A DNA stretch of 64,000 nucleotides from an uncultured Candidatus Saccharibacteria bacterium. Lineage in GTDB: Bacteria > Patescibacteriota > Minisyncoccia > Phycocordibacterales > DATDWN01. Made by a program: the position numbers and the translations under genes. The stretch is from assembly GCA_964596875.1 (NCBI GenBank), contig CAZQVT010000001.1:107255-171254 (forward strand), read 5' to 3'. The stretch's first letter is position 1. Each line of letters opens with the position of its first letter. The notes under the pieces are model-generated. The model had not been told where the DNA came from and did not search any database. It worked only from the letters and a program-made list of their open reading frames with translations. This document shows, one piece after another, positions 3,401-59,319 of the stretch.

Positions 3401-4161
3401 AGTTGTTTGAAAAGAGAAAACCAAAGAACCCAGCAGTTGTTGCATCTGTTTCTGGAACAGTTACAGATATCAAAATCACAGACAAGGAGAAGATCATCAC
3501 TGTTACTCCGCTTCTAGAAGATAGAAAGAAAACAAAAGACACTATCGAGTATTCAACATCTCTAAACCGAACTATGTTGGTAAAAGCAGGTGACGAAATT
3601 AAGAAGGGAGACATAATAACAGACGGTTCAGCAGATATCGACGAGTTGTTCAAATACGCTGGAAAGGATAAAACTGTTGACTATATTATTCACGAGATCA
3701 ACAAACCTTACGAACTACAAGGAGAAAACGTTTCAAGAAAACACATCGAAACTATCGTAAGACAAATGTTCTCTAGAAAGAGAATCAAGACAGCAGGAGA
3801 TACTTACTTTGTTGCGGGCGACATTGTTGAAAACAATTTGCTAGTAGAGGAAAACGCAAAAATGAAGGAGGAAGGAAAAGAACTTGCTACAGCAGAACCA
3901 GTTGTGATGGGTATTACAGATGTTTCACTTTCACGACAAAGTTTCCTTTCTGCAGCTTCATTCCAACACACAACTAGAATCCTTATCTCAAGTGCAATAA
4001 GAGGAAACTCAGACAAACTAGCAGGACTAATGGAAAACGTTATCCTAGGTAGACTAATCCCAGCAGGAACAGGATTTAAGGGAAGTAGTAAACAAGAGAT
4101 GGTGGCGAAGATGCGAGCAGAGAGACCAGTAGTATTCGATGAAAGTACTCGTTACCAATAG
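484..4161 (+). CDS. rpoC: DNA-directed RNA polymerase beta' subunit
   Basis: 1225 aa with Zn-finger [36 protein letters not shown] catalytic motif, trigger loop and C-terminal domains. Synteny after rpoB. Confidence 0.95.
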
Positions 4162-4281
4162 AGTCTTCAAATTTGACGAATTCCTTGTTTCGGTTTTGAA
4201 AATTCTCGTCAATGTACTAGGTGTACACCTCCTCGCATTTCCAAAACCTCAACGGCGGACTTCATTCAAATTCTGAAAACT
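4161..4281 (+). repeat. MITE/REP-like element, family 1, copy R1 (about 121 bp, imperfect TIRs GAGTCTTCAAATTTGA / TCAAATTCTGAAAACTC)
   Basis: Core TTTTGAAAATTCTCGTCA-[palindrome GTGTACAC]-CTCGCATTTCCAAAACCTCAACGGCGGA is shared with 48066-48187 and, in reverse complement, with 13826-13945 and 59207-59319. Starts at the rpoC stop codon. Confidence 0.6.
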
Positions 4282-4303
4282 CTAAAGTTTTTCAGGTTCA
4301 CGT

Positions 4304-6064
4304 TTGATTAAACACACTCTCCTCAAAATGTCCTCAGTAGATCAAATCAAATCAAAAATAGACATTGTTACACTTATTTCAGCCTACATAAAGCTGGAAA
4401 AAGCTGGAACGAACTTTAAAGGTAGGTGTCCTTTTCATAACGAAAAGACACCCTCCTTTTTCGTGTCCCCAGACCGGGGGAACTATTATTGTTTTGGCTG
4501 TCATGCAAAAGGTGACATATTTACTTTTGTACAGGAGTTTGAAGGATTAGACTTTGTCGGGTCACTAAAAGTTTTGGCAGAAAAAGCTGGAGTAGAACTT
4601 GAAAACTATAACACTGGAGAAAAAACAGAAAGAGAAAGATTGTTTTCTGTTTTGGAAAAAGCGGTATTTTTCTACGAGAAGAAACTTTCAGAAAATGTAG
4701 AGGCCCAAAACTATTTGAAAGGCAGAGGATTGCTACCGGAAACTATAAAAAGTTTTAGAATCGGCTACGCTCCACAGGACTGGCGACTATTGCTCGAGTA
4801 TCTAAAAGAAAAAGGAGTTTCAGAAAAAGATATGCTCGCTGTGGGTCTGGTAAAGAAAAAAGACGGAGCACTTTCTGTACTGTCTTCTTACTACGATACT
4901 TTTCGTGGCAGAATAATGTTTCCTATCGCTGACTCATCTGGAAGAGTAGTTGGTTTTTCTGGAAGAATACTAGTACCAGATGAAAAGTCTCCAAAGTATT
5001 TAAACTCTCCAGAAACAGAACTGTTTAACAAATCTGAAATACTTTTTGGATTAGACAAGGCAAAGAAAGATATAAAAATAAAGGACTACTCTGTTTTGGT
5101 AGAAGGTCAGATGGACTTGGTTATGCTTCACCAGGTAGGACTTACAAACACTGTTGCATCTTCTGGAACTGCACTTACTTCAAACCATCTTGTGAAACTT
5201 CAGAGACTTTCTGACAGAATCATGATGTCTTTTGATGCGGACTCTGCAGGTTTCAATGCTTCTGATCGTGCAGCGAAAATTGCGCTTTCTCTCGGAATGG
5301 ATTTGAAATTAGTTTCAATGCCGGAAGGCAAAGACCCTGCGGATTTAGCAAAAGAGGATCCTGAGTTACTTAAAGAGTGTTTTCGAAACTCAAAATCCAT
5401 AGTGGACTTTTACGTTGACACTTTGCTTTCAAAAAACTTAAGCCCAAAAGACCTGACTATAGAAATACGTAAAAAAGTTTTGCCCTACATTGCTCAGATG
5501 AAAGACAAGACTGACCAGGCTCACTTTGTAAAAGTAATCATGAAAAAAACTTTTATAAACGAGGAAGCGCTTTGGGAGGATTTGAAAAAAGTTGGAGTAA
5601 ATGAAAATAACTATAGTCCGGGACAAAGTTCCGCTCCACCAACAAGAAGGGTGGACAGTATCGAGAGAAAAATACTTGGAATAATAATTTGGATAAAGGA
5701 AAAGAAGGATGAAGGAAATATTTTGGAGAAACTGGATGTAGAGGGTAGAGTGAGGAAAATAATCGGCGAAAGACTTTCGGAACTTGAAAAGATTTTTGAA
5801 AAAGACAAAGACCTACTGTTATTTGAAACCGAAAGCCATTATAATAATAAGAATAATTTAGAAAAAGATATCGAAGAACTCCTGGTGTCACTTGAAGAAG
5901 AATATTTGCGAAGAGAATTAACGGTGGCAATGGAAAACTTGCAAAAGGCAGAGCAAAAGAGGGAAAGCGGTGAGATTCTAAAGTTTTTAGAGGAATGTCA
6001 GCGGATAACACAAAGAATAAATACGATCAAAACAATAAAAAGTGCGTTTGAAAATAAAAAATGA
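4304..6064 (+). CDS. dnaG: DNA primase
   Basis: Zn-ribbon [30 protein letters not shown] and [19 protein letters not shown]...SFDADSAG. Alternative start at 4328 (MSSVDQIK). Confidence 0.9.
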
Positions 6065-7350
6065 AAAACAAGAAATTAAAAAAGAATAAATCTAAATCAC
6101 AAAAGTCTACAAAAAAAGTAGCGAAAAAAGTGGTGAAGACTAAAGTAGCATCAAAGAAACAAAAAAAGATTTCTGTGCCAAAGATTCGTGCAAAAAAGAA
6201 AAACAAATCTTCTTTGGCGATGCGGGCTGCAAAGACGACAACAAAGACTGTAAAGCCTCAGAAAAAAGCTGAAAAGCAAAACGACGGTATGGCGAGACTT
6301 CTTCATAAAGGAAAGGAGAGAGGATATATAACCTATGACGAAATTCTAAAAGAGTTTCCAACTATCGAAGACGATATTTTGTTCCTAGAGGAACTTTATG
6401 AAAAGTTTTCTACAGGAGGCATAGATGTTTTGGAAGGAGGAGGACTTCTGGATGCTGGAAACAACGACGACCTGATAGCTAAAAAGTATACATACGGTAG
6501 AGGAGGCGAGTCTTCATATGACTCTATACAAATGTATCTAAAAGAGATCGGCCAGTACCAGCTTATTTCTGGAGGAATGGAAAAAGAGTTGGCGAAAAGA
6601 ATCGAACAAGGTGATGAAGAAGCAAAAACATTACTTGCTCGTGCGAACCTCCGACTTGTGGTTTCGATTGCTAAAAAATATGCAAACAGAAGTGCAGACC
6701 TAACACTTCTTGATCTTATTCAAGAAGGTAACCTTGGTTTGTTTAAGGCGGTAGATAAGTTTGATTGGACAAAGGGTTACAAGTTTTCTACATATGCAAC
6801 ATGGTGGATACGACAGGCGATAACTCGTGCGCTAGCTGATCAGTCTAGAACTATTCGTGTTCCAGTGCACATGGTAGAAACTATCGCAAAATATAAACAA
6901 GTAGTTCGAAGACTTTCACAGGATTTGGGACGAGATCCTTTGCCAGAAGAAATTGCAGTTGAAATGAATCTTTCAGTGGACAAAGTTTACACTATCGAGA
7001 AAATCGACCAGTCTACACTTTCACTTGAAGCACCGATAGGGGACGAGGGTGATGAAAGTAAAAGTAAACTCGGAGACTTTTTGGCGGATGATAAAATACT
7101 TTCTCCAGATCAGGAGTCTTCAAGAAGAATTGTTTCAGACCAAGTTAGAGAAATACTAAATGACTTGCCAGAAAAAGAAAGAAAGATTCTAGAACTTCGT
7201 CACGGACTTGTGGATGGCGTGACACATACACTAGAAGAAGTAGGAAAGGAGTTTGGAGTTACTCGAGAACGTATCAGACAAATCGAAGCAAAGGCACATG
7301 AAAAGATACGACAGCATGATAAGATAAATAGGTTAAGGAATTACTATTAG
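6061..7350 (+). CDS. rpoD: RNA polymerase sigma-70 factor with unusual Lys-rich N-terminal tail
   Basis: Region 2-4 motifs [40 protein letters not shown] and C-terminal [22 protein letters not shown]. First 75 aa are KKxK-rich ([28 protein letters not shown]...). Confidence 0.9.
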
Positions 7351-7501
7351 AATTTTCGTTTTATATTTTTCATCGCTACCAAAAATCGCCCCAGCGGGCG
7401 ATTTTTGCTGGTCCTCAACCCCTCGTCGTCAAGAACGGGGTGCCTTGACGACACCATGCTCGGGGTCTGCGGAGGCTCTGAAAAAAACAAAACGAAAATT
7501 C
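7350..7501 (+). repeat. TIR element family 2, copy A, carrying an intrinsic terminator hairpin (AAAAATCGCCCCAGCGGGCGATTTTT at 7381-7406)
   Basis: Perfect 12-13 bp TIRs AATTTTCGTTTT (7351-7362) / AAAACGAAAATT (7489-7500). Internal stems CGTCGTCAAG..CTTGACGAC and conserved CCATGCT..CTGCGGAG are shared with copies at 32954-33085, 37024-37131 and 43124-43262. Confidence 0.6.
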
Positions 7502-7560
7502 TAATTTGACAAAATGTAATTTTATGTGCCATAATGTTTGTGGAGAGAAAGGGGCGAGAC

Positions 7561-8160
7561 ATGAACTGGTACCAGTCTGTGAGTGTGGTTCTGGCGCTGG
7601 GACTGTATGTCCCACTTGGTGTACAGATCCTTCAGGGTAAGGTCGTGCAGAACTTGGCGACCTTCATTCTGTGGGGGCTGCTCGATACCATCGCCGGCAC
7701 ATCTCTATACGTTCAGGGTGGCAACTACGGGTTGCCGTTCGCGTACGTTGCGGGGTGCACATTCATCATCGCGTGCATCCTGAAGAAGCGAACCTACAAC
7801 TGGACCAGTTTTGAAACGAAAGTATCGTTTCTGGTCCTCCTGTCCATTGTTGCCTGGATGGTCTCCGGACCCTACATGGCGACAATCTTCTCAACTACCG
7901 GCGTGGTGCTCGCGGGAGTTCCCCAGGTGAAAGATTCCTGGAGAAACCCGAAGCAGTCGCCGATGCTTCTTTACATCGGGTACGCATTCGCAAATCTACT
8001 GTCAACTATCGGCGGCAAGTCGTGGACAGTGGAGGAACGACTGTACTCGTTTGCCTGCTTTCTGCTCGTTCTGGTAGTAGTAGGCGCAACGTCGAGAAAG
8101 TACACTCTGGCATATCGTCGTATGGTGGACGATGCTCGCGAGCTGTGGAGTCTCGACTAA
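7561..8160 (+). CDS. GC-rich polytopic membrane protein, possible PQ-loop/SWEET-like transporter (two repeats, second with VPQVKDSWRNPKQ)
   Basis: About 58% GC against about 35% in flanks. RBS AAAGGGG 6 nt before ATG 7561. Hydrophobic helices throughout. Family assignment is from the motif only. Confidence 0.45.
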   Translation: MNWYQSVSVVLALGLYVPLGVQILQGKVVQNLATFILWGLLDTIAGTSLYVQGGNYGLPFAYVAGCTFIIACILKKRTYNWTSFETKVSFLVLLSIVAWMVSGPYMATIFSTTGVVLAGVPQVKDSWRNPKQSPMLLYIGYAFANLLSTIGGKSWTVEERLYSFACFLLVLVVVGATSRKYTLAYRRMVDDARELWSLD

Positions 8161-8544: not shown

Positions 8545-8961
8545 ATGCTCGGACTTTACTTGCGTGCGGCGTTTTCTGGCCTGTTCTTTGGGCTGTGGCC
8601 ACTTTTCATGAAGCACAGTGGCATTAAGAGTTCTGCGGTCTCGACGATCTTTCTCGAGGCTGTGGTTCTCGCTGTCGTGCTTCTCTACGGAGGGCGTGAG
8701 TTCTCAACAACCGATCTGTCGGGAACAAAGTGGGTGTACTTGTTCCTGGCTGGTGCGAGTGCGGCGACCGGAGTCCTCGCATTCAACAGTGGACTTGCAG
8801 TTTCAACCGAGTCCACTGTGAGTCTGATTGTTGTGACTGCCATTCTGGTACAGGTGGTGGTGACGGCAGTCTACCAAGGAACTATTGGTGGTGGAATCTC
8901 CGTGACCAAGGCGGTAGGGTTCGCCCTCGCGGGCATTTCAGCCTACATCCTTTCGAGGTAA
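8545..8961 (+). CDS. GC-rich small 4-TM membrane protein, EamA/SMR(ArnE/F)-like
   Basis: 138 aa with four hydrophobic helices. RBS GGGGAGG 3 nt before the ATG. High GC. Confidence 0.4.
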   Translation: MLGLYLRAAFSGLFFGLWPLFMKHSGIKSSAVSTIFLEAVVLAVVLLYGGREFSTTDLSGTKWVYLFLAGASAATGVLAFNSGLAVSTESTVSLIVVTAILVQVVVTAVYQGTIGGGISVTKAVGFALAGISAYILSR

Positions 8962-8970
8962 CGCGTCGTG

Positions 8971-9010
8971 TGTGGCGGGACAAGTGTCCCGCCGGCACGG
9001 CTTTTTTGTT
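8971..9010 (+). terminator. intrinsic terminator GGCGGGACAAGTGTCCCGCC GGCACGGCTTTTTTG
   Basis: Stem-loop plus T-run after the 8961 stop. Paralogous to the 8177 terminator. Confidence 0.65.
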
Positions 9011-9038
9011 ATATAAAATAAAGTGGTATCCTATACCT

Positions 9039-11939
9039 ATGTCAGCGGATATTTTTAAAGAAAAATACAAAGCACTAAATAAGGCACAAAAGGAGGCGGT
9101 AGATGCCATAGAGGAGCCAGTTATGGTCGTGGCAGGTCCTGGAACGGGTAAGACAACTATTTTAACGCTTCATATTGCAAACATACTACTTGAGACACAG
9201 ACAAATCCTGGGGGCATTTTAGCCCTTACTTTTACTGACGCCGGGGTAAAGTCCATGAAAAAGAAATTACGACAGATCATTGGTAGTCGTGCTGATGAGG
9301 TCGCTATACATACTTTTCACTCTTTTGCTGGATCAGTTTTTTCACAGTTTCCAGACCATTTCCCAGAACTTTTTAGAACAAAGCAGATTACAGACATAGA
9401 GGCAGAAAGTATGGTTCGTGAAATACTGCGTTCAGAAAAGTTTGGAAAACTCCGACCTTTCGGAGAACCAGACTACTATGTTGGGAAAATATTAAAAGGT
9501 ATAAGTGATTCCAAAAAAGAAAACCAAACTCCAGAAAGTGTTTCGGACTTTGCAAAACAAGAAATAGAAAGACTAAAAAGTGACCCAGCGTCTATCTCTT
9601 CTCGTGGTCCAACAAAAGGAAAACTAAAAGCAGATGTGAACGGGAAAATAGAAAAATGCGAAAGAACGTTTTTGTTTTCTGAAGTTTTTAGAATTTTTGA
9701 AGAAAAGAAAAAAACTCTAAAACTTTTAGACTACGACGATCTACTTCTGAAACTTTTGGAAGCACTGGATAAAGACACTCAACTTTTGCAGGAACTGCAG
9801 GAAAAGTTTCAGTATGTACACATAGATGAACATCAGGATACCAACGAGTCGCAAAACACTATTGTTATGAAACTGGTGGACTTTTTCGACACCCCAAATA
9901 TTTTTATTGTAGGAGATGAAAAGCAGGCGATATATCGTTTCCAAGGCGCGTCTGTAAAAAACTTTCTGACATTCCAAAACAAATGGAAAAAAATGAAAGT
10001 AGTAAAACTCGAAAGCAACTACCGAAGTCATCAGGCCATACTGGATGCTACTTTTAAAATGATAGAAAACAACTACGAAGAAGGAGAACATAAAGACCTT
10101 CGGGTAAAACTAACAGGAAATGGAAAAGAAAGACCGATAGACCTTGTTACAAGTCCAGATGGTTTTACGCAGGATGAATATATTGTAAAAAGAATAAAAG
10201 AAATACAGAAAGAAGACGGGGATGCGACCGTTGCGGTTATTGTTCGCAAAAACAGAGAAGTCGAACACTTTTTGTCTTTATGTGAAAGAAATGACATAGA
10301 AGCCACAGCAGAAAGAGGTGTAAATATTTTTGAATCACCGGTTGGTACTTTGTATTTTGATATTTTGGAGTACCTAAACGACAGAACAAAAACCGAGGCA
10401 CTGGCGAACACCATCGCACGAGGTTTGTGGGGTATAGATTTTCAAAAGTCAGTTGCACTAATAAACAAAATAAGAAGCACTGATGTAGATATAGAAAATG
10501 AGTTGCCTCAAATAAAAACTATACTAAACGAGATAAATACTGGTGGAGTCATAAACTTTCTCATACTTACGGCAGAACTTTCTGGATATGCTGAAGTCGT
10601 AAAACAAAGTCCAGTTTCGGCGGAAGTGTGGAGGGCGATAGTGGACCTTTCAAAAGACATTGCAGAAGGCGGTTCCATACAAGACCCAAAGATTTTGATA
10701 CAAGAACTTTTGAACTACAGAAAAACTGCAGAGAACAAGTCGATAAAAATCGGTAGTGGAAGTATAAATTCTAAAGTTCAAATAATAACCGCGCACTCTT
10801 CCAAGGGTCTAGAGTATGACTATGTTTTAATGCCAAATGTAACAGAGGAGTCGTGGATGAGTCATAGTTTTGGTAACTCTTTTGTGTTTGCATTTCAAAA
10901 AGAAGAGGGTGATGAGGTAAAGGATTCTCGAAGACTTTTCTATGTGGCGATGACTCGTGCAAAACAGCACGTAGAACTTGTGGTCCCAGAAGAAAACTCT
11001 GGTGGAAGGGAACTTACACCGCTACGCTTTTTGTCAGAACTAGACGCTAAACATATAAAAACAACAAACCTAAAAAGAGTTATGGAAAGACCTTTGGAAC
11101 TTTCTTTGGGATATTTTGACAAAGTGAGAGAAAAAGAAGCTCAAGAGTACACAAAAAGAGTTTTGGTACAAAAGGGACTTTCTGTAACAGCATTGAACCA
11201 TTTTCTAGATTGTCCTAGAGGATTTTTCTACAAGAGTATTCTAAAGATTCCAGAAGCACCTAGTGTTTCGTCCGAAAGGGGTATTGCAATGCACAAAGCA
11301 CTTTCACTAGTTTGGAGAGAGGAAAAAAGAAAGGCTTCGGATATAGAAAGAACTATAGTTTCTGTCACGGACGAGTATTTCAAAAAGTCTTTGTTGCCAA
11401 AGTTTGAAAAAGAAATAGTAATGGAGGAAATAAAGTCGTATGCAAAAGTCGTTGCAGTTGAACTGGAAAGTTATTTTGCTTTTGCAGGACAAACCTTTTT
11501 GGAAAAATGGGAAGAAAAAGAACACACTGTAAGGTTTGAAAATGAAGAAGTTACTTTTAACCTGCATGGTCAGCTGGATGCGATACTTGTAGATGACGAC
11601 TACGCTAGGATTTATGACTACAAAACCACCGAGGTAAAAAGCATAGCAAGCATAAAAGGGGAGACAAAAAGTTCGGATGGAAACTATTTTAGACAACTAG
11701 TTTTCTACAAGTTCCTATTACAAGGAAACGCAAACTACAAAGGCAAGGTGATAGAACCAGCACTGATTTTCGTAAAACCAAACGCGGGCGGTAAGTGTCC
11801 AACCGTTGTAATCCCTATAGAAGAAAACGATATAGAAAATATAAAAAATGAAATACAGAGTTTGGTGGAGTCGGTTTGGTCCGGAGAGTTTCTGAAAACT
11901 AGGTGCGACGACAAAAATTGTAAGTATTGCAAGATATAA
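9039..11939 (+). CDS. UvrD/PcrA-family SF1 helicase fused to a C-terminal Cas4/AddB-type PD-(D/E)XK nuclease with Fe-S cysteines
   Basis: Walker A VVAGPGTGKTT and motif II HIDEHQDTN. C-terminal nuclease LDAILVDDDYARIYDYKTTE, with Cys in FLDCPRGFF plus RCDDKNCKYC, a 1+3 Cys pattern like AddB/Cas4. The ORF track start 8730 is rejected because it overlaps the upstream gene and terminator. Confidence 0.8.
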   Translation: MSADIFKEKYKALNKAQKEAVDAIEEPVMVVAGPGTGKTTILTLHIANILLETQTNPGGILALTFTDAGVKSMKKKLRQIIGSRADEVAIHTFHSFAGSVFSQFPDHFPELFRTKQITDIEAESMVREILRSEKFGKLRPFGEPDYYVGKILKGISDSKKENQTPESVSDFAKQEIERLKSDPASISSRGPTKGKLKADVNGKIEKCERTFLFSEVFRIFEEKKKTLKLLDYDDLLLKLLEALDKDTQLLQELQEKFQYVHIDEHQDTNESQNTIVMKLVDFFDTPNIFIVGDEKQAIYRFQGASVKNFLTFQNKWKKMKVVKLESNYRSHQAILDATFKMIENNYEEGEHKDLRVKLTGNGKERPIDLVTSPDGFTQDEYIVKRIKEIQKEDGDATVAVIVRKNREVEHFLSLCERNDIEATAERGVNIFESPVGTLYFDILEYLNDRTKTEALANTIARGLWGIDFQKSVALINKIRSTDVDIENELPQIKTILNEINTGGVINFLILTAELSGYAEVVKQSPVSAEVWRAIVDLSKDIAEGGSIQDPKILIQELLNYRKTAENKSIKIGSGSINSKVQIITAHSSKGLEYDYVLMPNVTEESWMSHSFGNSFVFAFQKEEGDEVKDSRRLFYVAMTRAKQHVELVVPEENSGGRELTPLRFLSELDAKHIKTTNLKRVMERPLELSLGYFDKVREKEAQEYTKRVLVQKGLSVTALNHFLDCPRGFFYKSILKIPEAPSVSSERGIAMHKALSLVWREEKRKASDIERTIVSVTDEYFKKSLLPKFEKEIVMEEIKSYAKVVAVELESYFAFAGQTFLEKWEEKEHTVRFENEEVTFNLHGQLDAILVDDDYARIYDYKTTEVKSIASIKGETKSSDGNYFRQLVFYKFLLQGNANYKGKVIEPALIFVKPNAGGKCPTVVIPIEENDIENIKNEIQSLVESVWSGEFLKTRCDDKNCKYCKI

Positions 11940-13250: not shown

Positions 13251-13351
13251 AAAATTTTCTATGCATTTTTCATACAGTTTCAAAAAAGCATTATTTTAAG
13301 CCATATTTTTAGTACACAAAAATGAAAATGGATTTTGCCATAAAAAGTACT

Positions 13352-13380
13352 TGACGTAAATAGTATAGTGTGCTAAGATA
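13352..13380 (+). promoter_or_regulatory. sigma70-like promoter TTGACG-17-TAAGAT
   Basis: TTGACGtaaatagtatagtgtgcTAAGAT, 70 nt upstream of the GC-rich ORF 13453. Confidence 0.5.
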
Positions 13381-13452
13381 TTTGGGAAGCCGTAAGCGTT
13401 GCAATTTAGCGCCCAAGGTTTGCACACCACAACTTCATCGAGAGGACACACC

Positions 13453-13569
13453 ATGATCGACGACGACAAGAGTCCGCCGGCCGCCGCCAACCTGATGGGG
13501 CCCTGCCGCCCCGGATATCTCGGCCTCAGCCACCAGATGCGCAACCACGCCGGCCACGTCGCCGCCTGA
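13453..13569 (+). CDS. GC-rich small ORF (38 aa, MIDDDKSPPAAANLMGPCRPGYLGLSHQMRNHAGHVAA)
   Basis: RBS GAGAGGA about 6 nt upstream and the promoter at 13352. Followed by a structured GC-rich tail and terminator-like GAGGGGGCC..GGCCGCCCTCTTTTCTTTT at about 13765-13800. Confidence 0.35.
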   Translation: MIDDDKSPPAAANLMGPCRPGYLGLSHQMRNHAGHVAA

Positions 13570-13825
13570 CACCGGCCGTCGGCGCCCGCGCTAGCGACTA
13601 GGTTCACGCTGTCGTGACCTAGATGTCGCCCAGCCAAGCGCGTCGCCTGCCCGTGTCGTTTCGCCCGCATCCCGCGGGCAACAGGAGTTCGCCGATGAAC
13701 CGTTCACCGCCCTGAAGTTTCGCCCAGCTAGTCTGGGCACCGTGGATACACAAGAGGGGGCCAGCGTCAGATACGCCGGCCGCCCTCTTTTCTTTTATAC
13801 AAAATTTTTTATTACCACGAATTAA

Positions 13826-13945
13826 GAACTGATAAATTTGAGTTCAGTTCTAGGCGGACGAGAAAAATGCGAGAAGCCTTACTAATAGTAAGGTGACGAG
13901 AATTTTTTGAAGTCCAACAACGAAATGAGCCAAATTTATAAGTTC
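13826..13945 (-). repeat. MITE/REP-like element family 1, copy R3 (inverted orientation), TIRs GAACTGATAAATTT / AAATTTATAAGTTC
   Basis: Reverse complement carries TTCAAAAAATTCTCGTCACCTTACTATTAGTAAGGCTTCTCGCATTT, matching the R1/R2 core. 13 of 14 bp in the TIR pair. Confidence 0.6.
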
Positions 13946-48218: not shown

Positions 48219-48719
48219 TTAAAATTGAGGGATTACTACAATAGAACATTTGCTTTCAAATTCAGATATCTTTACTGAATTATCTACTCCGTCCACTAGG
48301 GACCACTCTTTTTGTGATGCTTCTAATCTTTCTATTGTGTTTAAAATTATTAAATCTAGTTCGAGCACAATATCATTTGCAGTGCGATCTTGTTGAAGAA
48401 AACTCAAGCAATCTAATGTATCATATTTATCTTGCAAATTTTTTGGCGTGAGTGAATTATTCTCGACAGATTTCATAAAATTTTGTTGAGCGATAGCGTA
48501 CCGTTTATAGGCGGATTCAAGTTGAGAATTTTTTGAAAATCTTTCACTGATCCATTCTTGTACATCGTCACGAATTCCGTCAGAATCCAAATCGATTCCA
48601 GATAGTGTGTGCTGAATGTTTTTGGTAGTCTTTGTATTATCGTATTTTATATATGAATATGACAATATAATATGAATTACTATTATGAAACATGCTAAAA
48701 ATTTTTTATTTAATTTCAT
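48219..48719 (-). CDS. hypothetical secreted/membrane-anchored protein
   Basis: N-terminal TM or signal sequence. AT-rich host-like composition. Confidence 0.4.
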   Translation of the reverse strand: MKLNKKFLACFIIVIHIILSYSYIKYDNTKTTKNIQHTLSGIDLDSDGIRDDVQEWISERFSKNSQLESAYKRYAIAQQNFMKSVENNSLTPKNLQDKYDTLDCLSFLQQDRTANDIVLELDLIILNTIERLEASQKEWSLVDGVDNSVKISEFESKCSIVVIPQF

Positions 48720-48778: not shown

Positions 48779-49438
48779 CTAAGGTTTTAGAACAATTCTG
48801 TCCTTAGCTTCTTTGGTTATGGTGCTTCTTATTTGTGCCAGTGCATCTACTTCAAGTATTTCTCGGATATGGTTTATAGACGACTCTCTTATTCCACTCT
48901 CTCTGTTTCCCAGAAGAGAAGCTAGGTTTTCATCAATAATTTTTGCATATTTTTCTATATCAGCATGTTCAGTAGAGTTTTCCTTTTTATAGTGACTATT
49001 TCCAACCTCTATCAAAACTCTTTCGTACTCTATTAGTTCATCTTCAAGTTTTTCTGTTAGCCATGCACTGTATTTTCTTCGTATTCTAACTAGAGGTAAA
49101 ACAAGAAGTCCTGTTTCTTTACTGGTGCCATTCTGAGTCAGTTCATCAAAAGTGTTTTCTATTGCTTCAATGTATTCCTCACAAAACTGTACGTGTTTGT
49201 CGTAAGCAACAGCTGCCATATGTGCTCCAGTTCCTGTCGCAAAGTTATTCAAGCTTATTTGTCGTATTGTTCCATAAAAGTGTTCTATCTTTTCTGTGAA
49301 AATATCCATTAGGAAAGAAAATAGTGCAAGTATTCCAGGCAGGGCAACTAGTGTTTTAATGAACGTGCTGGCAGGCAGGTTTATAGATAGGAGGAAAGAC
49401 ACACAAAGAAGCAGTATCTGTAGGCGGTGTTTTTTCAT
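48779..49438 (-). CDS. hypothetical membrane protein
   Basis: Two N-terminal TMs. 219 aa. Confidence 0.4.
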   Translation of the reverse strand: MKKHRLQILLLCVSFLLSINLPASTFIKTLVALPGILALFSFLMDIFTEKIEHFYGTIRQISLNNFATGTGAHMAAVAYDKHVQFCEEYIEAIENTFDELTQNGTSKETGLLVLPLVRIRRKYSAWLTEKLEDELIEYERVLIEVGNSHYKKENSTEHADIEKYAKIIDENLASLLGNRESGIRESSINHIREILEVDALAQIRSTITKEAKDRIVLKP

Positions 49439-49516: not shown

Positions 49517-49619
49517 CTATACAGTAATTCCTATTCGTTATGAGTAGGTGGCTCGCAAGAGCAACGAGGCAGTATTTCCCACCTCATCAAAGGGAAATGT
49601 TCGTCACAAGGAGGCCGTT

Positions 49620-49991
49620 ATGGCCACCACGCAGAGTCATGGAATCACTTCGGGAACTCTGGAGTTGCAGAGACGTCGGATTGTCGCGGGCCCATCCCGC
49701 GAATGTCTGTTCGACTCTCTTCGGCTCGGGACCTTCCGTAACAGGATGGCCATTGCCTTCACGGTCGCGCCATCGCACCTGACTGGCAGAAACCTGGCAG
49801 ATGGTCGGCGGTTCGTTCCCGGCAACCTGATGTTCCACGCCACGGTTGTCATGATCCGTCCGGAAGACGGAAGTGGCTATAACTGGCTGTTCGAACTCAG
49901 CGACGAAAATCGGACGCTCGGTTCAGACAAGTTGCGTGGGTACATGAACACGAACCTTCGCACGGGCTGGGTCGAGCCGATCTTCGACTAG
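49620..49991 (+). CDS. GC-rich hypothetical protein (123 aa)
   Basis: RBS AAGGAGG 5 nt before the ATG. About 60% GC. Terminator CAGGCGCACttccttcgggatGTGCGCCTG plus T9 at 50007-50046. Confidence 0.45.
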   Translation: MATTQSHGITSGTLELQRRRIVAGPSRECLFDSLRLGTFRNRMAIAFTVAPSHLTGRNLADGRRFVPGNLMFHATVVMIRPEDGSGYNWLFELSDENRTLGSDKLRGYMNTNLRTGWVEPIFD

Positions 49992-50126: not shown

Positions 50127-50666
50127 ATGCAAGAGGCAACTCCTTTTTCAGACACTATTTCATTATTAGCACTTATTATTTCTTTCGGAGCTTTGGCATG
50201 GAACATAGTTAGAGATTTTGTTTTAGACCGAGTAAAGATAGAGTTTTTCATATCAATGGGGCACATGAGGCAGATTAAAGGTAGTCCCACTGCATTATTT
50301 GCTGAACATGGTGTATTTAGTGATGAAATAGAAAATTCAAAATTGATGTTAACTATGATAAACAATAGTAGAAGGCATTTATATCTTCAAAAAGTTCAGG
50401 GAAAATTCAAGACAGTAATTGAAAATAATAAAGTTTATTTTTCTGTTGCTGTTGCTGGTTTGCCTAAAAAACTCGAATCTTATGAAATGTTTTCTGCAGT
50501 ATCAGATATGGTTCCGAGTGATATTCTATTGGAAAATTTAATTAAAAATAATATTGATTCAATTTGGGTGGAGGACACTTCTAATCACAAATGGTATATA
50601 ACCAAGACCAATCTTGAAAAATTAAGAGAAACGGCTTTTCAGATAAAAAAAGGTGAGCCACAATAA
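50127..50666 (+). CDS. hypothetical protein with N-terminal TM
   Basis: AT-rich. 179 aa. Confidence 0.35.
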   Translation: MQEATPFSDTISLLALIISFGALAWNIVRDFVLDRVKIEFFISMGHMRQIKGSPTALFAEHGVFSDEIENSKLMLTMINNSRRHLYLQKVQGKFKTVIENNKVYFSVAVAGLPKKLESYEMFSAVSDMVPSDILLENLIKNNIDSIWVEDTSNHKWYITKTNLEKLRETAFQIKKGEPQ

Positions 50667-50784: not shown

Positions 50785-50798
50785 CACGCGGGCTTTTG

Positions 50799-50870
50799 TG
50801 ACCCTATGGGGAGTCGAACCCCAATTGCAGCCTTGAGAAGGCCGCGTCCTAACCATTAGACGATAGGGCC
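50799..50870 (-). tRNA. tRNA-Glu (CTC)
   Basis: Reverse complement GGCCCTATCGTCTAATGGTTAGGACGCGGCCTTCTCAAGGCTGCAATTGGGGTTCGACTCCCCATAGGGTCA folds as a cloverleaf. Anticodon loop TTCTCAA. CCA not encoded. Confidence 0.8.
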
Positions 50871-52757: not shown

Positions 52758-55493
52758 ATGGAAAATCCTACTAACCAGCGCTTTGCTACACCAGAAGCTG
52801 AAATTGCTTACTTGCGAGAGCAGATTTCTAACAAAGAAAAAATTCTTCGCGAAACAAACCCAAACTTAAACAGTGAAGAAGTTGTAAAAGAAGAAATAGA
52901 AAAATACAAAAATGCTTTGTCGCACGAAGTTTTGGACGAAACCTTGCAACTTTCAAAAGTAGACATGGAGTCTATTGTTTTAAACCTAGAACCAGAGACT
53001 CATGATAACAAAATAGAGGAACTTTTAAGTATTTTAAATACAAAAGGCATCAAAAACGCGATGTCTGTTTTGGCAGAAATGAAAGACCCGCACTTAGAAG
53101 ACGATTTTCATAGGTTTTTAGTGCAATATATAAAACATGGCTATGAGGCAAAAGGTGTAAGTATTTCTGTAGATGAGTTTCGTGGACTAGATATGACTTT
53201 GTTTGAGGTTGTTTTGCCAGAAGAAGCAGGGGAACATAATAAAAAGCCACTAAAGGAACTTGTTTCTAGTATGGAACAGTTTTTGGCCGGAATGCTGTCA
53301 GTTGTAAATGAAAACGGCACAAGAGACTACTCTAAAAACTATATTGTACTTGAAATAGCAAACCCAAACGGTAGTGACCAGTTTGTTTTCTATGTTGCAG
53401 TGCCAAACTCGTATAGACAACTTTTTGAAAAACAGATCATTTCTGTATTTCACAATGCAGTTCTAAACGAGGCAGTGTGTGACTACAATATTTTCAATAC
53501 TGACGGTGTTTCTGTCGGTTCTGTTCTAGAGGCAACCGTAAATCCCATCTACCAGTTTAAAACCTACGAGAGTTTTGACCACGACCCAATGAACGTTATC
53601 TTAAACTCTTTTTCTAAAATCCAAAAAGAAGGTGAGGGCGCGGGTATCCAAATAGTTTTTGCTCCAAAAGACGACTATTTCCTGAAAAATTATAAATACG
53701 CTATAGAACAAATAGAAAATGGTGAAAAAGTAAAAGACGCTATATATCTTCCAGAAACAATTGCCGGAAGTTTTGGTAAAGGTCTAAAGTCTTTGTTCAA
53801 AGCGTCTCCAAAAGAAGAAGAAAAAAAACCAGTAGATACAGAAGCGATAGATAAGATTAAAAAGAAAATGAGTAGTGTGATAGTGGCTACAAACATTCGT
53901 CTTATCGCTTCTGCAAAAACCAGACTAGAAGCTGAAAAGATTTTGCAAACACTAGAGTCTAGTTTCAACCAGTTTTCTGACCCTAGTGCAAACGGCTTGA
54001 AAGCAAAAAGACTAGACAAAGCAAGTTTGGAAAAAATGTTTAGAAACTATTCTTTTCGAAGTTATAACCACAACGAACTTTTACCTCTAAACCTTCATGA
54101 GGTTACTTCGCTGTACCACTTCCAAAACAATGGACTTTCACCTACGCCACAACTAAAACAAACACAGGCTGTTTCTGCTCCTGCTCCTGCAGAAATGACT
54201 GCAGGCGGAACACTTTTGGGAACGAACACATATAGAAACACTGACACCGCAATATATATAAAAGACAACGACCGTTTGAGACATACATATACTATTGGTC
54301 AGACAGGTACAGGTAAAACAACCTTGCTTGTAAATATGATCATGCAGGACATAAACCAGGGAAATGGTTGCTGTTTTATCGACCCACACGGAAGTGATGT
54401 ACAAAATATTCTTTCAAATATTCCAAAAGATAGAATAAAAGACGTGATTTATTTTGATCCAAGTTATACAGAAAGACCGATGGCACTAAACATGCTGGAG
54501 TATGATAGAAGTCATCCTGAACAAAAAACTTTTGTGGTAAACGAGTTGTTTAGTATCTTCCAAAAACTATATGGAGGCGTGCCAGAGTCTTTGGGGCCAA
54601 TGTTCGAGCAATACTTTAGAAACGCAACAATGCTTGTGATAGAAGACCCAGACACAGGATGCACTTTGCTTGATGTTTCCAGAGTTATGACAAACAAAGC
54701 CTTTCGAGATATGAAAGTAGCCAACTGTAAAAACCCAGTAGTTGTTCAGTTCTGGAAAGAAATAGCTGAAAAAGCAGGCGGTGAAGCAAGTTTGGCAAAC
54801 ATTGTTCCATATATTACTTCAAAGTTTGATGTATTTTTGGCAAACGATATTATGCGACCTATAGTAGCGCAAGAAAAATCTTCTTTTGATTTCCGAAAGA
54901 TAATGGATGAAAAGAAAATACTTCTTGTAAACCTTTCAAAGGGAAGATTGGGGGACATAAACGCCAACCTTATCGGTCTTATACTTGTAGGTAAAATACT
55001 TATGGCTGCACTTTCTCGTGTGGACAAACTTGGCACAGAAGACTTGCCTCCTTTCTATCTATATATAGACGAGTTTCAAAATATTACGACAAACTCTATT
55101 TCAACTATTCTTTCTGAGGCAAGAAAATATAAACTTTCTTTAAATATTGCGCACCAGTTTATCGCCCAACTTCAACAGGAAATAAAAGATGCTGTGTTTG
55201 GAAATGTTGGTTCAATGTTTGTGTATCGTGTGGGTGCAGAAGATGCGGAGTTTCTAGAAAAACAGTTCTCGCCTGTGTTTACTGCAAAAGATATTATGAA
55301 TATCGACAACTATAATTTTTATACAAAAATGTTGGTAGATGGAAAAACAGTAAAAGCGTTCAATGTAAAAGCAAACCCAGCACCAAAAGGAAACCCTGGT
55401 GTAGTAGAAAACTTAAAACAACTTTCATATCTTACATACGGAGGGGATAGAGCAAAAATAGAAGAAGAGATACTGGCGAAATATAAAAAATAA
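52758..55493 (+). CDS. large P-loop ATPase, TraG/TraD/VirD4-like type IV secretion coupling-protein family (DUF87-like), orphan
   Basis: Walker A IGQTGTGKTT, DPHGS, Walker B LYIDEFQN. 911 aa with a long N-terminal soluble domain. No other T4SS genes in the window. Confidence 0.55.
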   Translation: MENPTNQRFATPEAEIAYLREQISNKEKILRETNPNLNSEEVVKEEIEKYKNALSHEVLDETLQLSKVDMESIVLNLEPETHDNKIEELLSILNTKGIKNAMSVLAEMKDPHLEDDFHRFLVQYIKHGYEAKGVSISVDEFRGLDMTLFEVVLPEEAGEHNKKPLKELVSSMEQFLAGMLSVVNENGTRDYSKNYIVLEIANPNGSDQFVFYVAVPNSYRQLFEKQIISVFHNAVLNEAVCDYNIFNTDGVSVGSVLEATVNPIYQFKTYESFDHDPMNVILNSFSKIQKEGEGAGIQIVFAPKDDYFLKNYKYAIEQIENGEKVKDAIYLPETIAGSFGKGLKSLFKASPKEEEKKPVDTEAIDKIKKKMSSVIVATNIRLIASAKTRLEAEKILQTLESSFNQFSDPSANGLKAKRLDKASLEKMFRNYSFRSYNHNELLPLNLHEVTSLYHFQNNGLSPTPQLKQTQAVSAPAPAEMTAGGTLLGTNTYRNTDTAIYIKDNDRLRHTYTIGQTGTGKTTLLVNMIMQDINQGNGCCFIDPHGSDVQNILSNIPKDRIKDVIYFDPSYTERPMALNMLEYDRSHPEQKTFVVNELFSIFQKLYGGVPESLGPMFEQYFRNATMLVIEDPDTGCTLLDVSRVMTNKAFRDMKVANCKNPVVVQFWKEIAEKAGGEASLANIVPYITSKFDVFLANDIMRPIVAQEKSSFDFRKIMDEKKILLVNLSKGRLGDINANLIGLILVGKILMAALSRVDKLGTEDLPPFYLYIDEFQNITTNSISTILSEARKYKLSLNIAHQFIAQLQQEIKDAVFGNVGSMFVYRVGAEDAEFLEKQFSPVFTAKDIMNIDNYNFYTKMLVDGKTVKAFNVKANPAPKGNPGVVENLKQLSYLTYGGDRAKIEEEILAKYKK

Positions 55494-56016: not shown

Positions 56017-56529
56017 TTATGCGATTAGTTGGTCTACAACACGCTTAACAATGTCTCCGTCCGCTTTTCCTTTCAAATCCTTCATAAGTGTTCCCATAAA
56101 CATCCCTGCTTTAGATTTATCTATACTTCCTGCCTCTGCTAGTTTTATTTTTGCGAAAGCCCTCACGTCTTCCTCGGACATCATCTGTGGTAGGTATGCT
56201 TCAAGTACTTTTAGTTCAGCCTGTTCACTTTCAGCTAGTTCTGGTCGGCCACCTTTTGTAAACTGGTCAATAGAATCTTTTCTTTGTTTTACTGCTCGTC
56301 TGATAACATTTAGCACCTCTTCATCAGAAAGTGCATCCTGAGGCATTCTCTTTAGTGCCACAAGTTCGTTTGTAAAACCTGCTACTAGGCCTTTTACTAC
56401 GCCTAGTTTAACTTGGTCTTTTGCTAACATTGCTTCTTTAATTTGCCCTTTGATTGTTTCTTGTAGTGTCATATAAGTAAAGATTACCACAGGCCAGATA
56501 TTTTTGGTAGAATACTGTGATGGAACCAA
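56017..56529 (-). CDS. GatB/YqeY-domain protein
   Basis: LQETIKGQIKEAMLAKDQVKLGVVKGL, a YqeY signature. Confidence 0.75.
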   Translation of the reverse strand: MVPSQYSTKNIWPVVIFTYMTLQETIKGQIKEAMLAKDQVKLGVVKGLVAGFTNELVALKRMPQDALSDEEVLNVIRRAVKQRKDSIDQFTKGGRPELAESEQAELKVLEAYLPQMMSEEDVRAFAKIKLAEAGSIDKSKAGMFMGTLMKDLKGKADGDIVKRVVDQLIA

Positions 56530-57563
56530 TTACTATTATTTTGATATTAGTTGCACTTGGAGTTGGCTTTGCTATCGCGTATTTTTTACGACCAAAACAG
56601 GCAACAGACGAAACAGGACTGAAACTCATCCTACAGCAGATGAACGAACTTTCTCGTGTGGTGGATTCTAAAATAGGTGAGTCTACTCGCCAGATGAACG
56701 ACTCTGTCAGGCACCAACTAGGTGAGTCAGCAAACCTTATCCGCGAAGTGACTATTGGTCTTACTAAACTAGACGAAACCAACCGGCAAGTAGTTTCTTT
56801 TGCGGACCAGTTGCAAAACCTCCAGGACATACTTAAAAACCCGAAACAAAGAGGAATACTTGGTGAATACTATCTTGAAACACTTCTTAAAAATGTTCTG
56901 GCTCCAAACCAGTACCAGATGCAATATGGTTTCAAAAATGGAGAAATAGTAGACGCTGCTGTTTTTGTAAAAGACAAAGTTATCCCAGTGGACTCAAAGT
57001 TTTCACTAGAAAACTACAACAGAATGATAGAAACCACAGATACTACAGAGCGAAGTCGTCTTGAAAAACTTTTTGTAAACGACTTGAAACTTCGTATAAC
57101 AGAAACTGCAAAATATATTCGTCCGGAGGAAGGAACAATGGATTTTGCTTTCATGTTTATTCCACATGAGGCCATTTACTATGATCTCCTTATCAACAAA
57201 ATTGGCGCCCTTCAAGAAGATACAGAAAACTTAATCCAGCGTGCAGCTGGAAAATACAAAGTAATTATTGTTTCTCCAACTTCATTTTTAGCATATTTGC
57301 AGACAGTTTTGCAGGGGCTAAAAGCGCTACAAATAGAGGAAACTACAAAAGATATTATAAAAAGAGTGGGTGAAATAGGTACACATTTGAAAAAGTACGA
57401 GGAGTATCATAATAAACTCGGTACATCTCTTGCTACTGTGGTAAACCACTACAATGGCTCAAGTAAGGAGTTTAAAAAGATAGACAAGGACGTGATGCGT
57501 ATAACAGGGGAGTCCAATAGTTTTGAACCTCAACTCATAGACAAACCCGAGGAGGAGGAATAG
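56517..57563 (+). CDS. rmuC: DNA recombination protein RmuC
   Basis: N-terminal TM, coiled coil and DFAFMFIPHEAIYYDL nuclease-like motif. Confidence 0.8.
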   Translation: MMEPITIILILVALGVGFAIAYFLRPKQATDETGLKLILQQMNELSRVVDSKIGESTRQMNDSVRHQLGESANLIREVTIGLTKLDETNRQVVSFADQLQNLQDILKNPKQRGILGEYYLETLLKNVLAPNQYQMQYGFKNGEIVDAAVFVKDKVIPVDSKFSLENYNRMIETTDTTERSRLEKLFVNDLKLRITETAKYIRPEEGTMDFAFMFIPHEAIYYDLLINKIGALQEDTENLIQRAAGKYKVIIVSPTSFLAYLQTVLQGLKALQIEETTKDIIKRVGEIGTHLKKYEEYHNKLGTSLATVVNHYNGSSKEFKKIDKDVMRITGESNSFEPQLIDKPEEEE

Positions 57564-57965: not shown

Positions 57966-58540
57966 ATAAGGAAAAGGGCTAGGATCGAATGGTCACGTGG
58001 GGTGTGCGTAGAGACCAAGGATACCTAGCCCTTCTGCCGACTTGGGTCGGCTTCAGTTGAAACAGTATAAAGAGCGAGACCGGTAAGACCGATCTGGAGG
58101 GAAAACACGTTCCTCCACGTTGATGCGTGTATTTCACGCACCCCCGAAATCGAGCCTCCACATACTGGCCGCCAACCTATCGCCCTCACTAGGGTCGGGT
58201 TGGACATCATCCAGTCTCGCGTATTAACCAACATTTGTAATGCAGGCAAATACTCGAGACCGGCTTCTGTATGGAACTATAGCACAAATAAAAAATATTT
58301 CAACCATTAGAAAACGGTCGCCAGGCGACCGTCGTAGGTGGTTCCGTAGGAGTGTCGCAGTGTACAAACCGAAAGACAGTTCGGTTTGAATCCTTTTCTG
58401 TGCCACCAGAATGGTATATATCCTCGACGCAACATTCAAACCGTTACAGACTGGGTCGGGAGTCCCCAAGTGTGGAATCGGTGAAGGGCATCTAGAGAAT
58501 CTACACACGGCAGACCTAACTGAACCATTTCACATACTAT
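57966..58540. ncRNA. GC-rich structured region without credible ORF, candidate ncRNA(s); class and strand unresolved
   Basis: About 57% GC between rplU and recR. Stems GGGCTAGG..CCTAGCCC, GGAGGgaaaacacgttCCTCC, TGCGTGtatttcaCGCA, GTCGCCagGCGAC and AAACCGAAagacagTTCGGTTT. Internal minus-strand promoter-like TTGAAA-16-TATAGT (about 58270-58305). Confidence 0.35.
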
Positions 58541-58544
58541 ATTA

Positions 58545-59156
58545 TTAGTTTCTGTTTTTCAAGGCGTTTTTTATAGTGTCGCTGTCAGAGTATTCCAGTT
58601 CGGTTCCGGTAGAAAGTCCTCTGCCAAGAGTTGAGATTTTAATATTATTTTTAGTTGTAACATCTTTTAGAAATTCAGTTAGGTAGTTTACAGTGTTTTC
58701 TCCTTCAGGGTTGTAGTTTAATGCTAAAATAATTTCATTTAGTCCTGTTGAGACTTTTGTTTGTATGGTTTGAAGTAAATCTTTTTGTCTTATTCTATTT
58801 TCAGGATTTTTTTCAAGTATTGGGACAGTGCCACCTAGTATAAAATAATAGCCGTTATAAAACTTTGTTTTTTCTATATTTTCATAATCCACATCATGGG
58901 AAACTATCATAAGTTGTTTTGGGTCCCGGTTAGTGTCTCTACAAACTGGACAAAGAGTATTTGTGCTGTTTGGAAAAAACCTAAAACAACTTGTGCACGA
59001 ATGTACTGTGGATCGAACCTCTTTTATTAACCCAGCAAGGTCGGTTGCATACCCCGGGTTTTTGTTCAGTAAAAAGTACACAAAACGTTTTGCTTGTCGT
59101 GGTCCGATTCCAGGAAACTCCTTAAAGAGTTCTATGAGTCGTTCAGTGTTGTTCAT
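58545..59156 (-). CDS. recR: recombination protein RecR
   Basis: Zn finger CTSCFRF..CPVCRD and Toprim domain. 203 aa. Confidence 0.9.
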   Translation of the reverse strand: MNNTERLIELFKEFPGIGPRQAKRFVYFLLNKNPGYATDLAGLIKEVRSTVHSCTSCFRFFPNSTNTLCPVCRDTNRDPKQLMIVSHDVDYENIEKTKFYNGYYFILGGTVPILEKNPENRIRQKDLLQTIQTKVSTGLNEIILALNYNPEGENTVNYLTEFLKDVTTKNNIKISTLGRGLSTGTELEYSDSDTIKNALKNRN

Positions 59157-59206
59157 ATAACCATATTATCAAATTTTTAAAACTCTTTCTCCTTGAGTTC
59201 TGGATT

Positions 59207-59319
59207 TCAAACTTTCAGATTTGTGATAAGGTCGCGTATAAAATTTCGAAATACGAGAAGCCTTACAAGTAGTAAGGCGACGAGAATTTTGAAATTTTAG
59301 ACGATGAGATTAGCCAAAT
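59207..59319 (-). repeat. MITE/REP-like element family 1, copy R4 (inverted orientation)
   Basis: TACGAGAAGCCTTACAAGTAGTAAGGCGACGAGAATTTTGAAA is the reverse complement of the R2 core. Ends AAACTTTCAGATTTG / CCAAATGTGGAAGTTTT. Confidence 0.6.

Follow-up and report, generated by a model that had tools for sequence, protein, structure and literature searches.

Introduction

Bacterial miniature inverted-repeat transposable elements, known as MITEs, measure 100-200 bp, lie between genes in many copies, give rise to transcripts with long stem-loops, and are polymorphic for presence and absence (PMC2229807). The enterobacterial repetitive intergenic consensus (ERIC) forms a long RNA hairpin that is co-transcribed with its flanking genes and has an orientation-dependent, ribosome-linked effect (PMC2229807). 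Repetitive extragenic palindromic (REP) sequences usually follow a stop codon by less than 20 bp and precede the next gene by variable distances, and they can themselves supply the stop codon (PMC3733652). REPINs, which are built from REPs and are non-autonomous, fold in single-stranded DNA (ssDNA) or in mRNA and depend upon a REP-associated tyrosine transposase (RAYT) (PMC3116915). The RAYT is a single-copy gene, and the REPINs are conserved and persist for long times (PMC3116915; bioRxiv 10.1101/2021.07.10.451892). Described here is a hairpin repeat of ∼120 nt, designated family 1, which was found in a 64,000-nucleotide stretch of DNA (the window; contig CAZQVT010000001.1, positions 107,255 to 171,254) from an uncultured Candidatus Saccharibacteria bacterium. 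The repeat adjoins the stop codons of housekeeping genes in a nearly fixed orientation, and its conserved fold is that of the strand antisense to those genes.

The genomes of the Patescibacteria, or candidate phyla radiation (CPR), are tiny and streamlined, and no description of REP- or MITE-like repeats in this phylum was found in the literature. With respect to position, De Gregorio et al. reportedly found in 2005 that those ERIC copies which are located at a stop codon, or overlap one, lie preferentially in one orientation. The HUH-type enzymes that act on REPs create no target-site duplication.

Results

Family 1 in the window

The coordinates of the family 1 copies and of the genes adjoining them are provided in Table 1. 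The initial annotation of the window listed four copies of the repeat, and all four are present. The interval given for copy 4, 59207-59319, was correct in its place but ∼10 nt short at the stop-codon end, and a fifth, diverged relative was overlooked. Common to the four copies is an invariant 41-nt core, AAATKCTCGTCR-N20-CTCGYATTT, for which 0.02 matches would be expected by chance, and none of 100 dinucleotide-preserving shuffles contained four or more matches. The mean column identity of the four-way alignment is 73%, and the pairwise identities reported by a repeat finder are 77% over 101 nt, 76% over 80 nt, 78% over 86 nt, and 90% over 41 nt. These extensions, at 76-90%, do not fall below the 60% that had been named as the mark of an over-read similarity. 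The longer string ending in CCAAAACCTCAACGGCGGA, thought to be shared by all, is found in copies 1 and 2, whereas copies 3 and 4 carry other arm modules. Every copy forms one imperfect hairpin over its full length, with folding z-scores of -5.3 to -8.2, rather than a body bounded by terminal inverted repeats (TIRs) of 12-16 bp as had been proposed. The copies are 10-35 kb apart.

None of the four copies starts more than 3 nt from the upstream gene's stop codon. Two of them, at rpoC and ftsI, had already been placed at stop codons, but the same holds for the others: copy 3 begins 3 nt past the TAA (13948-13950) of a gene for an RNase-H-like exonuclease, and copy 4 shares one nucleotide with the dnaB TAA (59329-59331). 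The statement that the copies lie in both orientations is true only for the window strand because all four are oriented alike relative to the upstream gene. The fifth relative, which combines a B-type outer stem (see below) and an ATGTAC apical stem with a different middle module, lies away from any stop codon in the divergent (promoter) region upstream of typA/bipA. Replication strand was rejected as the determinant of orientation. Along the 64 kb the orientation alternates (+,-,+,+,-) and tracks the local gene; thus it follows the genes and not the direction of replication.

Copy 2 is flanked by convergent genes. Because there is nothing between the element and the gene that follows at the rpoC-dnaG and dnaB-recR junctions, the copies there should be part of an intercistronic RNA. 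A sigma-70-like promoter was not found on either strand at any window copy, nor was a stem followed by a U-tract; indeed, an A-run rather than a T-run follows the sense hairpin. With no consensus matches at the window copies, a function as a terminator or promoter was rejected.

Occurrence in other genomes and the stop-codon rule

The repeat was compared among loci, which are fragments of metagenome-assembled genomes (MAGs) amounting to 884 kb in total and labeled L001, L023, and so forth. A search beyond the window revealed the core pattern in 38 stretches from ∼25 species-level genomes, all but one of which belong to the Patescibacteria. They are labeled Zambryskibacteria, Paceibacterota, Minisyncoccia, or, in third-party annotation (TPA) assemblies, "Saccharibacteria". 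The single match outside the phylum, in a member of the Parachlamydiales, lies within an open reading frame (ORF) and looks like a chance occurrence. A covariance model built from 43 copies identified ∼15 additional, diverged copies in the same loci as well as the fifth relative in the window. The core pattern had no match in viral contigs, and a phage or plasmid vector was rejected on that basis. In Rfam scans of the window and 18 loci at gathering scores, only tRNAs and one RNase P RNA reached threshold, and a permissive scan of one family 1 copy returned nothing; a known RNA family was thus rejected within that scope for every subfamily.

For 36-37 of the 43 copies with an exact core, a long co-oriented ORF ends 33-54 nt before the core, which corresponds to the base of the hairpin. 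One copy, in L034, adjoins a stop codon in the reverse orientation. The diverged copies, which were found by the covariance model only and hence constitute an independent set, follow the same rule in 12 of 15 cases. The upstream genes represent 26 unrelated housekeeping families. Those recognized by eye from their translations include RpoC, penicillin-binding proteins (PBPs), DnaB, EF-G, GyrA, RNase Y, FtsW, RpoD, MreC, S7, EF-P, GAPDH, SecY, S1, and PilB/C. The distance to the downstream gene, on the other hand, is variable; both neighbors are co-directional with the sense strand in 25 of 44 cases, and the downstream gene is convergent in 12. A three-base target alone could not account for such positional precision.

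The native stop codon of the EF-G gene is unchanged by the element, with the protein ending in ...ESRK where the element is present and in ...EARK where it is absent. In L020, a terminator scan flagged a terminator-like hairpin ∼40 nt downstream from the end of family 1, and a similar one, seen by eye but not flagged by the scan, follows the element in L001. The native stop codon is kept and the downstream terminator retained, and therefore the element is placed in the 3' untranslated region (UTR), where it would be co-transcribed, and has not replaced the terminator.

Fold and strand asymmetry

The alignment of the 43 copies was folded with RNAalifold, as the initial annotation had advised, and is predicted to contain 32 base pairs, 21 of which display compensatory changes. 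The compensatory change in the apical stem, to which the initial annotation had drawn attention, is confirmed over these copies. Standard pairs account for 95.0% of the total as compared to 80.0% in column shuffles, none of 500 of which reached the observed value, and they fall to 52% or less when the pairing partners are slid. There are 180 double-sided changes versus 47.8 expected, and copies differ cleanly in whether the apical stem is of the C-G/U-A or the U-A/G-C type.

The two strands are not equivalent. The strand antisense to the upstream gene is more stable by 10-20 kcal/mol in ∼40 of 44 copies, the diverged set behaves likewise, and with DNA parameters the antisense strand is still favored, by 3-10 kcal/mol. 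Among the consensus pairs on this strand, G.U outnumbers A.C by 140 to 15, or by 70 to 15 when two near-fixed columns are removed, and the bias is present in 41 of 43 copies. The invariant core of the antisense strand reads 5'-AAAU-R-C-GA-G-RA-G[stem-loop]U-GA-C-GA-G-M-AUUU. It is characterized by two tandem purine-purine (sheared-GA-type) mismatches with a G-C pair between them, closed by a G.U pair in 40 of 43 copies. The same positions on the mRNA strand are pyrimidine-pyrimidine and A.C mismatches. Note that the mRNA strand is C-rich and G-poor (1203 C and 686 G summed over all copies). A mutational strand bias was rejected as the cause of this composition, in that the sense strand would be expected to have more G than C if the non-template or lagging-template strand were deaminated, whereas C exceeds G. 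On the basis of these asymmetries, the form under constraint would be the folded antisense strand, as either ssDNA or RNA.

The invariant columns are all central, where direct CTCG repeats and nested arms lie on either side of one palindrome. Variability is highest over the outermost 6-8 bp, which are complementary yet different in each copy. The family as a whole is a mosaic in which outer stems, middle arms, core, and apical stem-loop reassort among copies and genomes. Two types of outer stem are A, AAACTTCCAAATYTGG, and B, GCTCNGGTCTTTTTG. Such a pattern is what gene conversion among the copies, or their nested insertion, would be expected to give. In L006 (the SIBV01 MAG), the copies at 1390-1430 and 3562-3602 differ in their outer stems, A versus B, and carry the same apical stem-loop, AACTTACAACGAGTAAGT, which is found in no other genome. 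The shared tip hints at homogenization within that genome. Genome-specific apical loops hold for SIBV/L006 but not generally, and were rejected as a rule.

Turnover and conservation at orthologous junctions

Orthologous junctions are polymorphic for the presence of the element at the genes for EF-G, RpoC, RpoD, GyrA, MreC, and an L21-like protein. The EF-G junction is occupied in L001; in L023, with 89% amino acid identity, there is only a canonical terminator. The RpoD junction contains a B-type element in L016, an A-type element in L025, and an unrelated family 2 element (see below) in the window. The RpoC junction was compared among 80 metagenomic relatives: the site is empty in L050, with just an 11-nt spacer before dnaG; it contains family 1 in the window and in L040, L049, and L060; and elsewhere it is occupied by family 2 or by at least five other palindromic families. 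Given such gain, loss, and replacement, family 1 is mobile or exchangeable. The RpoC stop codon is a hot spot across L039-L063, with at least six unrelated palindromic elements (L039, L042, L043/45, L046/47, L051, L048/52). In close relatives the unrelated families also fold better on the antisense strand. As a general rule after RpoC this was rejected: it holds for ∼13 of 16 closer relatives only, and over all 38 strong domains the split is 15 versus 19.

The insertion point can be read from L071 and L072, which are ∼92% identical in nucleotide sequence and have two different elements at precisely the same point, with the RpoD TAA on one side and a shared GGTTTGT spacer on the other. No target-site duplication is present there, so the duplication that the initial annotation proposed to look for is absent where it would be visible. 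TA...TA flanks accompany many A-type copies, but TA reads the same on both strands and belongs to the stop codon, and the L071/L072 pair has no duplication; for these reasons the flanks, inseparable from the stop codon or an extension of the palindrome, were rejected as evidence of a TA duplication. A displaced original stop codon was suggested by about half of the A-type copies, proved inconsistent (L020, L001, L004), and was dropped.

Where intact copies are shared, they are ∼97% identical at junctions whose third-codon positions are only 50-60% identical. Between L007 and L030, the elements after GyrA are 97% identical, whereas the four-fold sites of the adjacent codons are identical at 22 of 44. 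At the RpoC junction of L041 (4900-5060) and L102 (465-625), a complete C-type element is nested within the interrupted termini of an A-type element (AAACTTTCCAAT...ATTGTGAAAGTTT). The inner, intact element is identical at 119 of 123 positions, including one compensatory change from an A-T to a G-C pair, as compared with 61 of 100 rpoC third positions, 66% of the spacer, and 25 of 32 positions in the interrupted outer remnant. Because the intact copies lie far above the neutral level and the broken copy drifts, the intact ones are kept by selection or by continual homogenization.

The fixed orientation, antisense asymmetry, mosaic construction, wide distribution in the Patescibacteria, and supra-neutral conservation were all absent from the initial annotation.

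Other features of the window and loci

A second, unrelated palindromic family of ∼150 nt, family 2, has a shared core, GGGGTGCCTTGACGACACCATGCT..CTGCGGAGGC, and a hairpin, GTCGTCAAG/CTTGACGAC. The first of the three window copies begins at the stop codon of RpoD, and the other two begin ∼13-16 nt past the stop codons of class-II aminoacyl-tRNA synthetase genes (35627-37000 and 41646-43109). Folding energies for the sense and antisense strands are -57/-68, -51/-59, and -38/-47 kcal/mol, again better for the antisense strand, and other MAGs have family 2 in place of family 1 at the same junctions. Additional strong intergenic folds, of -48 to -66 kcal/mol over 80-150 nt, occur downstream of 58224-58508(-), 31922-32935(+), 34380-35474(+), and 43213-43461(+). 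They match neither family and may represent further hairpin families or structured RNAs. A near-perfect palindrome of 23-25 nt, CATGTCAAAGAGTCTCTTTGACATG, occurs twice (16443-16488 and 33529-33574), apparently within coding regions, namely a TruB-like ORF (15810-16616) and an ORF for the DNA polymerase III delta' subunit (33124-33795).

Among the proteins encoded in the window is one of 911 residues (52758-55493) that lies in otherwise housekeeping surroundings and has weak domains of the type IV coupling protein TraG/VirD4. RmuC (56517-57563), an AddA-like helicase-nuclease (8730-11939), and a SET-domain protein (24613-25017) are also encoded. Two MreB paralogues lie 4 kb apart (31922-32935 and 37167-38246), followed by mreC and a PBP2-like gene. 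Some 15 ORFs of the window have no Pfam match at E<=1e-5.

Table 1 Coordinates of the repeats, adjoining genes, and other features (window positions unless a locus is named)
Feature	Position	Strand	Remarks
Family 1, copy 1	4159-4284	+	126-nt hairpin; rpoC stop TAG 4159-4161 in base; core 4200-4240; apical stem ATGTAC/GTACAC; between rpoC and dnaG
Family 1, copy 2	48063-48190	+	128-nt hairpin including PBP (FtsI-like) TAA 48065-48067; core 48106-48146
Family 1, copy 3	13826-13945	-	120-nt hairpin; core 13865-13905
Family 1, copy 4	59209-59329	-	121-nt hairpin; core 59249-59289; between dnaB and recR
Fifth relative, diverged/chimeric	19424-19547	+	Covariance-model match
rpoC	484-4161	+	Pfam; stop adjoins copy 1; dnaG next
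Penicillin-binding transpeptidase (FtsI-like)	46379-48067	+	Pfam; stop adjoins copy 2
RNase_H_2/PolB-exonuclease-like gene	13948-14529	-	Pfam; stop precedes copy 3
dnaB	59329-60702	-	Pfam; stop adjoins copy 4; recR next
Family 2	7346-7505; ∼37000-37165; ∼43110-43260		Also in L008, L022, L028, L048, L052
ORFs without Pfam match (examples)	7534-8160; 13296-13670; 16653-17156; 17179-17607; 20500-21132; 25115-25612		
ORFs without Pfam match (further examples)	26090-26638; 48219-48719; 48779-49438; 49548-49991; 50127-50666		
Bacterial RNase P class A RNA	L024:7223-7634		Rfam
tRNA-Asn (minus strand)	25899-25973		
tRNA-Glu (minus strand)	50798-50870		

Discussion

Comparison with described repeats

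In its dimensions, family 1 is similar to ERIC, also called IRU, a 127-bp MITE of the enterobacteria and especially of Yersinia: both are imperfect palindromes of ∼120-130 bp that form a long hairpin. ERIC, however, duplicates TA and has conserved termini, whereas family 1 shows no target-site duplication and has hypervariable termini and an invariant center. In addition, the stop-codon and orientation rule of family 1 is nearly absolute, its conserved structure is antisense, it shows no sequence similarity to ERIC, and it resides in the Patescibacteria. The Correia/NEMIS, RUP, and bcr1 repeats share with family 1 a length of 100-200 bp, one long stem-loop, and presence/absence polymorphism. 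They possess defined TIRs, TA (or TTTAT) duplications, and in some cases a cognate insertion sequence. Neither such TIRs nor such duplications were seen in family 1, and the ∼60 ORFs of the window include no transposase. Ends that vary around a conserved center are the reverse of a TIR bound by a transposase, and thus family 1 does not resemble a MITE with conserved TIRs.

As with REPs, family 1 lies within 20 bp of the upstream stop codon and at a variable distance from the downstream gene. REPs are palindromes of 20-40 nt that carry an unpaired GTAG or CGTC tag. The sense core of family 1, CGTC-N-stem-loop, recalls the "CGTC-tagged" REPs, and in every copy CGTC precedes the apical stem by 1 nt. 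The published CGTC families have a stem of 8-9 bp that starts with AT, together with a loop of 4-5 nt and a tail reading CCA, whereas the stem of family 1 is 6-7 bp (CCTTAC, ATGTAC, and others) with neither the AT start nor the CCA tail. A REPIN consists of two inverted REPs and a spacer, and family 1 is instead a single nested palindrome with a double G.A core. It differs from an intrinsic terminator in that the short GC-rich stem and U-tract are absent at the window copies and terminator-like hairpins lie downstream. The MITE/REP-like label of the initial annotation therefore fits with regard to the dispersed palindromes, the conserved hairpin, and the stop codons, but not with regard to the lack of a target-site duplication, the variable termini, and the lack of a cognate transposase in the window.

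A proposed non-autonomous repeat in 3' UTRs

The explanation that we favor, with moderate confidence, is that family 1 is a clade-specific (Zambryskibacteria/Paceibacterota), non-autonomous, mosaic repeat of the REP/REPIN/ERIC kind that is co-transcribed in 3' UTRs and whose functional form is single-stranded. Such a repeat is not categorically new, but as a hairpin repeat of CPR bacteria it is undescribed, and it is unusually regular and well conserved. An element located directly after a stop codon, upstream of the gene's terminator or within an operon, would become 3'-UTR or intercistronic RNA. The mRNA would carry the C-rich, more weakly folding strand, and the opposite strand, folded as ssDNA or antisense RNA, would be the form that matters. 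The invariant double tandem G.A/G.U core is probably the recognition site of a predicted trans-acting nuclease or recombinase, which would function without a target-site duplication in the manner of the RAYT/IS200-type HUH enzymes on REP hairpins, and gene conversion between copies would shuffle the modules. The stop-codon and orientation rule could stem from the specificity of insertion, although filtering is more likely. Where operon junctions are tight, no point other than that directly after the stop codon may be neutral, and next to essential genes a copy may be tolerated only if its mRNA hairpin is weak and its base can be reached by the terminating ribosome.

Several observations weigh against this explanation. 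Unrelated hairpin families occupy the same stop-codon position, which argues for a host-level cause or filter, or for shared machinery, rather than a target specific to the family. Intrastrand template switching can also generate apparent compensatory changes in a quasi-palindrome when structure is not under selection. The termini are the least conserved part, unlike those of a classical MITE. No transposase, RAYT/HUH nuclease, or integrase was detected by Pfam among the ∼60 ORFs of the 64-kb window, and phmmer searches of the 884 kb of loci for Y1/HUH transposases, a weak test, returned no match. Finally, no insertion or excision was observed within a population. All of the occupied/empty pairs are diverged by at least 8%, and for that reason recombinational replacement is inseparable from transposition.

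Alternative explanations

A host-functional, cis-acting RNA in the 3' UTR or between cistrons, in which the sense transcript acts on the upstream mRNA and mobility is secondary or ancient, strikes us as possible though rather unlikely. It could serve as a barrier to 3'-exonucleases with mismatches that avoid RNase III, as an ERIC-like, ribosome-sensitive RNase site, or as a rut-like, C-rich and G-poor platform for loading Rho. The location of the element, with the stop codon before it and a terminator farther downstream, or else within operons, and with the same strand always in the mRNA, is in keeping with such a role, as are the conservation at orthologous sites far above the neutral level, the pyrimidine-rich sense strand with C in excess of G, and the precedent of ERIC (PMC2229807). 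Moreover, the RpoC and RpoD stop codons nearly always hold some hairpin, and the families swap as if a role were needed. Yet the conserved G.U and tandem G.A pairs are those of the antisense strand and become A.C and pyrimidine-pyrimidine mismatches in the mRNA, and orthologous genes in related MAGs (L023, L050) do without the element. For the Rho variant, a phmmer search of the 884 kb, a tiny sampling, gave no match to Rho. The location of the structural constraint is in keeping with an antisense RNA, either a small RNA expressed from its own promoter or from a divergent downstream one, or a barrier or terminator against antisense transcription into the 3' ends of essential genes. A convergent gene would transcribe the better-folding strand in 12 of 44 cases, and the hairpin of that strand has UUUA/UUUUA, complementary to the stop codon, at its end. 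This alternative is nonetheless quite improbable: neither a sigma-70-like promoter on either strand nor a terminator of stem and U-tract lies beside the window copies, the conserved T-run is 5' rather than 3' of the hairpin, both neighbors run with the sense strand in 25 of 44 cases, and no Rfam family matches.

The folded strand also brings to mind the attC sites of integron cassettes, imperfect palindromes 3' of an ORF whose bottom strand is folded and serves as the target of a tyrosine recombinase. Family 1 is like attC in its palindrome of ∼120 nt, its location, which adjoins or overlaps the stop codon of an ORF in the same orientation, its folding on the strand complementary to the coding strand, and its lack of a target-site duplication. 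The ends, however, are TAAACTTCC...GGAAGTTTA or TAGCTCGGG...CCGAGCTA and contain no R''/R' core sites (RYYYAAC/GTTRRRY), the conservation is central and not basal, the copies are scattered, each behind a single housekeeping gene (rpoC, dnaB, fusA, gyrA, secY, and others), instead of forming arrays, and the window encodes no integrase. We disfavor an attC-like site as highly improbable. A bolder reading, which we regard as unlikely, is that the hairpins are more than a further MITE and constitute a clade-wide, selectively maintained "gene-end mark", namely a single-stranded hairpin of template-strand DNA or antisense RNA whose invariant double tandem G.A motif is read by a dedicated protein of the host or element and is set at stop codons without a target-site duplication or a known transposase.

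Significance

If such a gene-end mark were to exist, it would represent either a new class of mobile element that targets stop codons or a new signal for gene boundaries in the ultra-small CPR genomes. The asymmetry of the strands makes the choice among RNA, ssDNA, and mRNA testable by strand-specific metatranscriptomes, and the repeat may be of practical use in gene-end annotation, strain typing, and binning. Despite the streamlining of these genomes, the junctions occupied by family 1 include those of core genes such as rpoC, rpoD, dnaB, fusA, gyrA, and secY. If family 1 is mobile, selfish DNA would survive in minimal genomes by landing where it is harmless, and an enzyme that acts on hairpins without target duplication would be implied. 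If it is functional, it would provide a new and easily recognized 3'-end expression signal in an uncultivated phylum.

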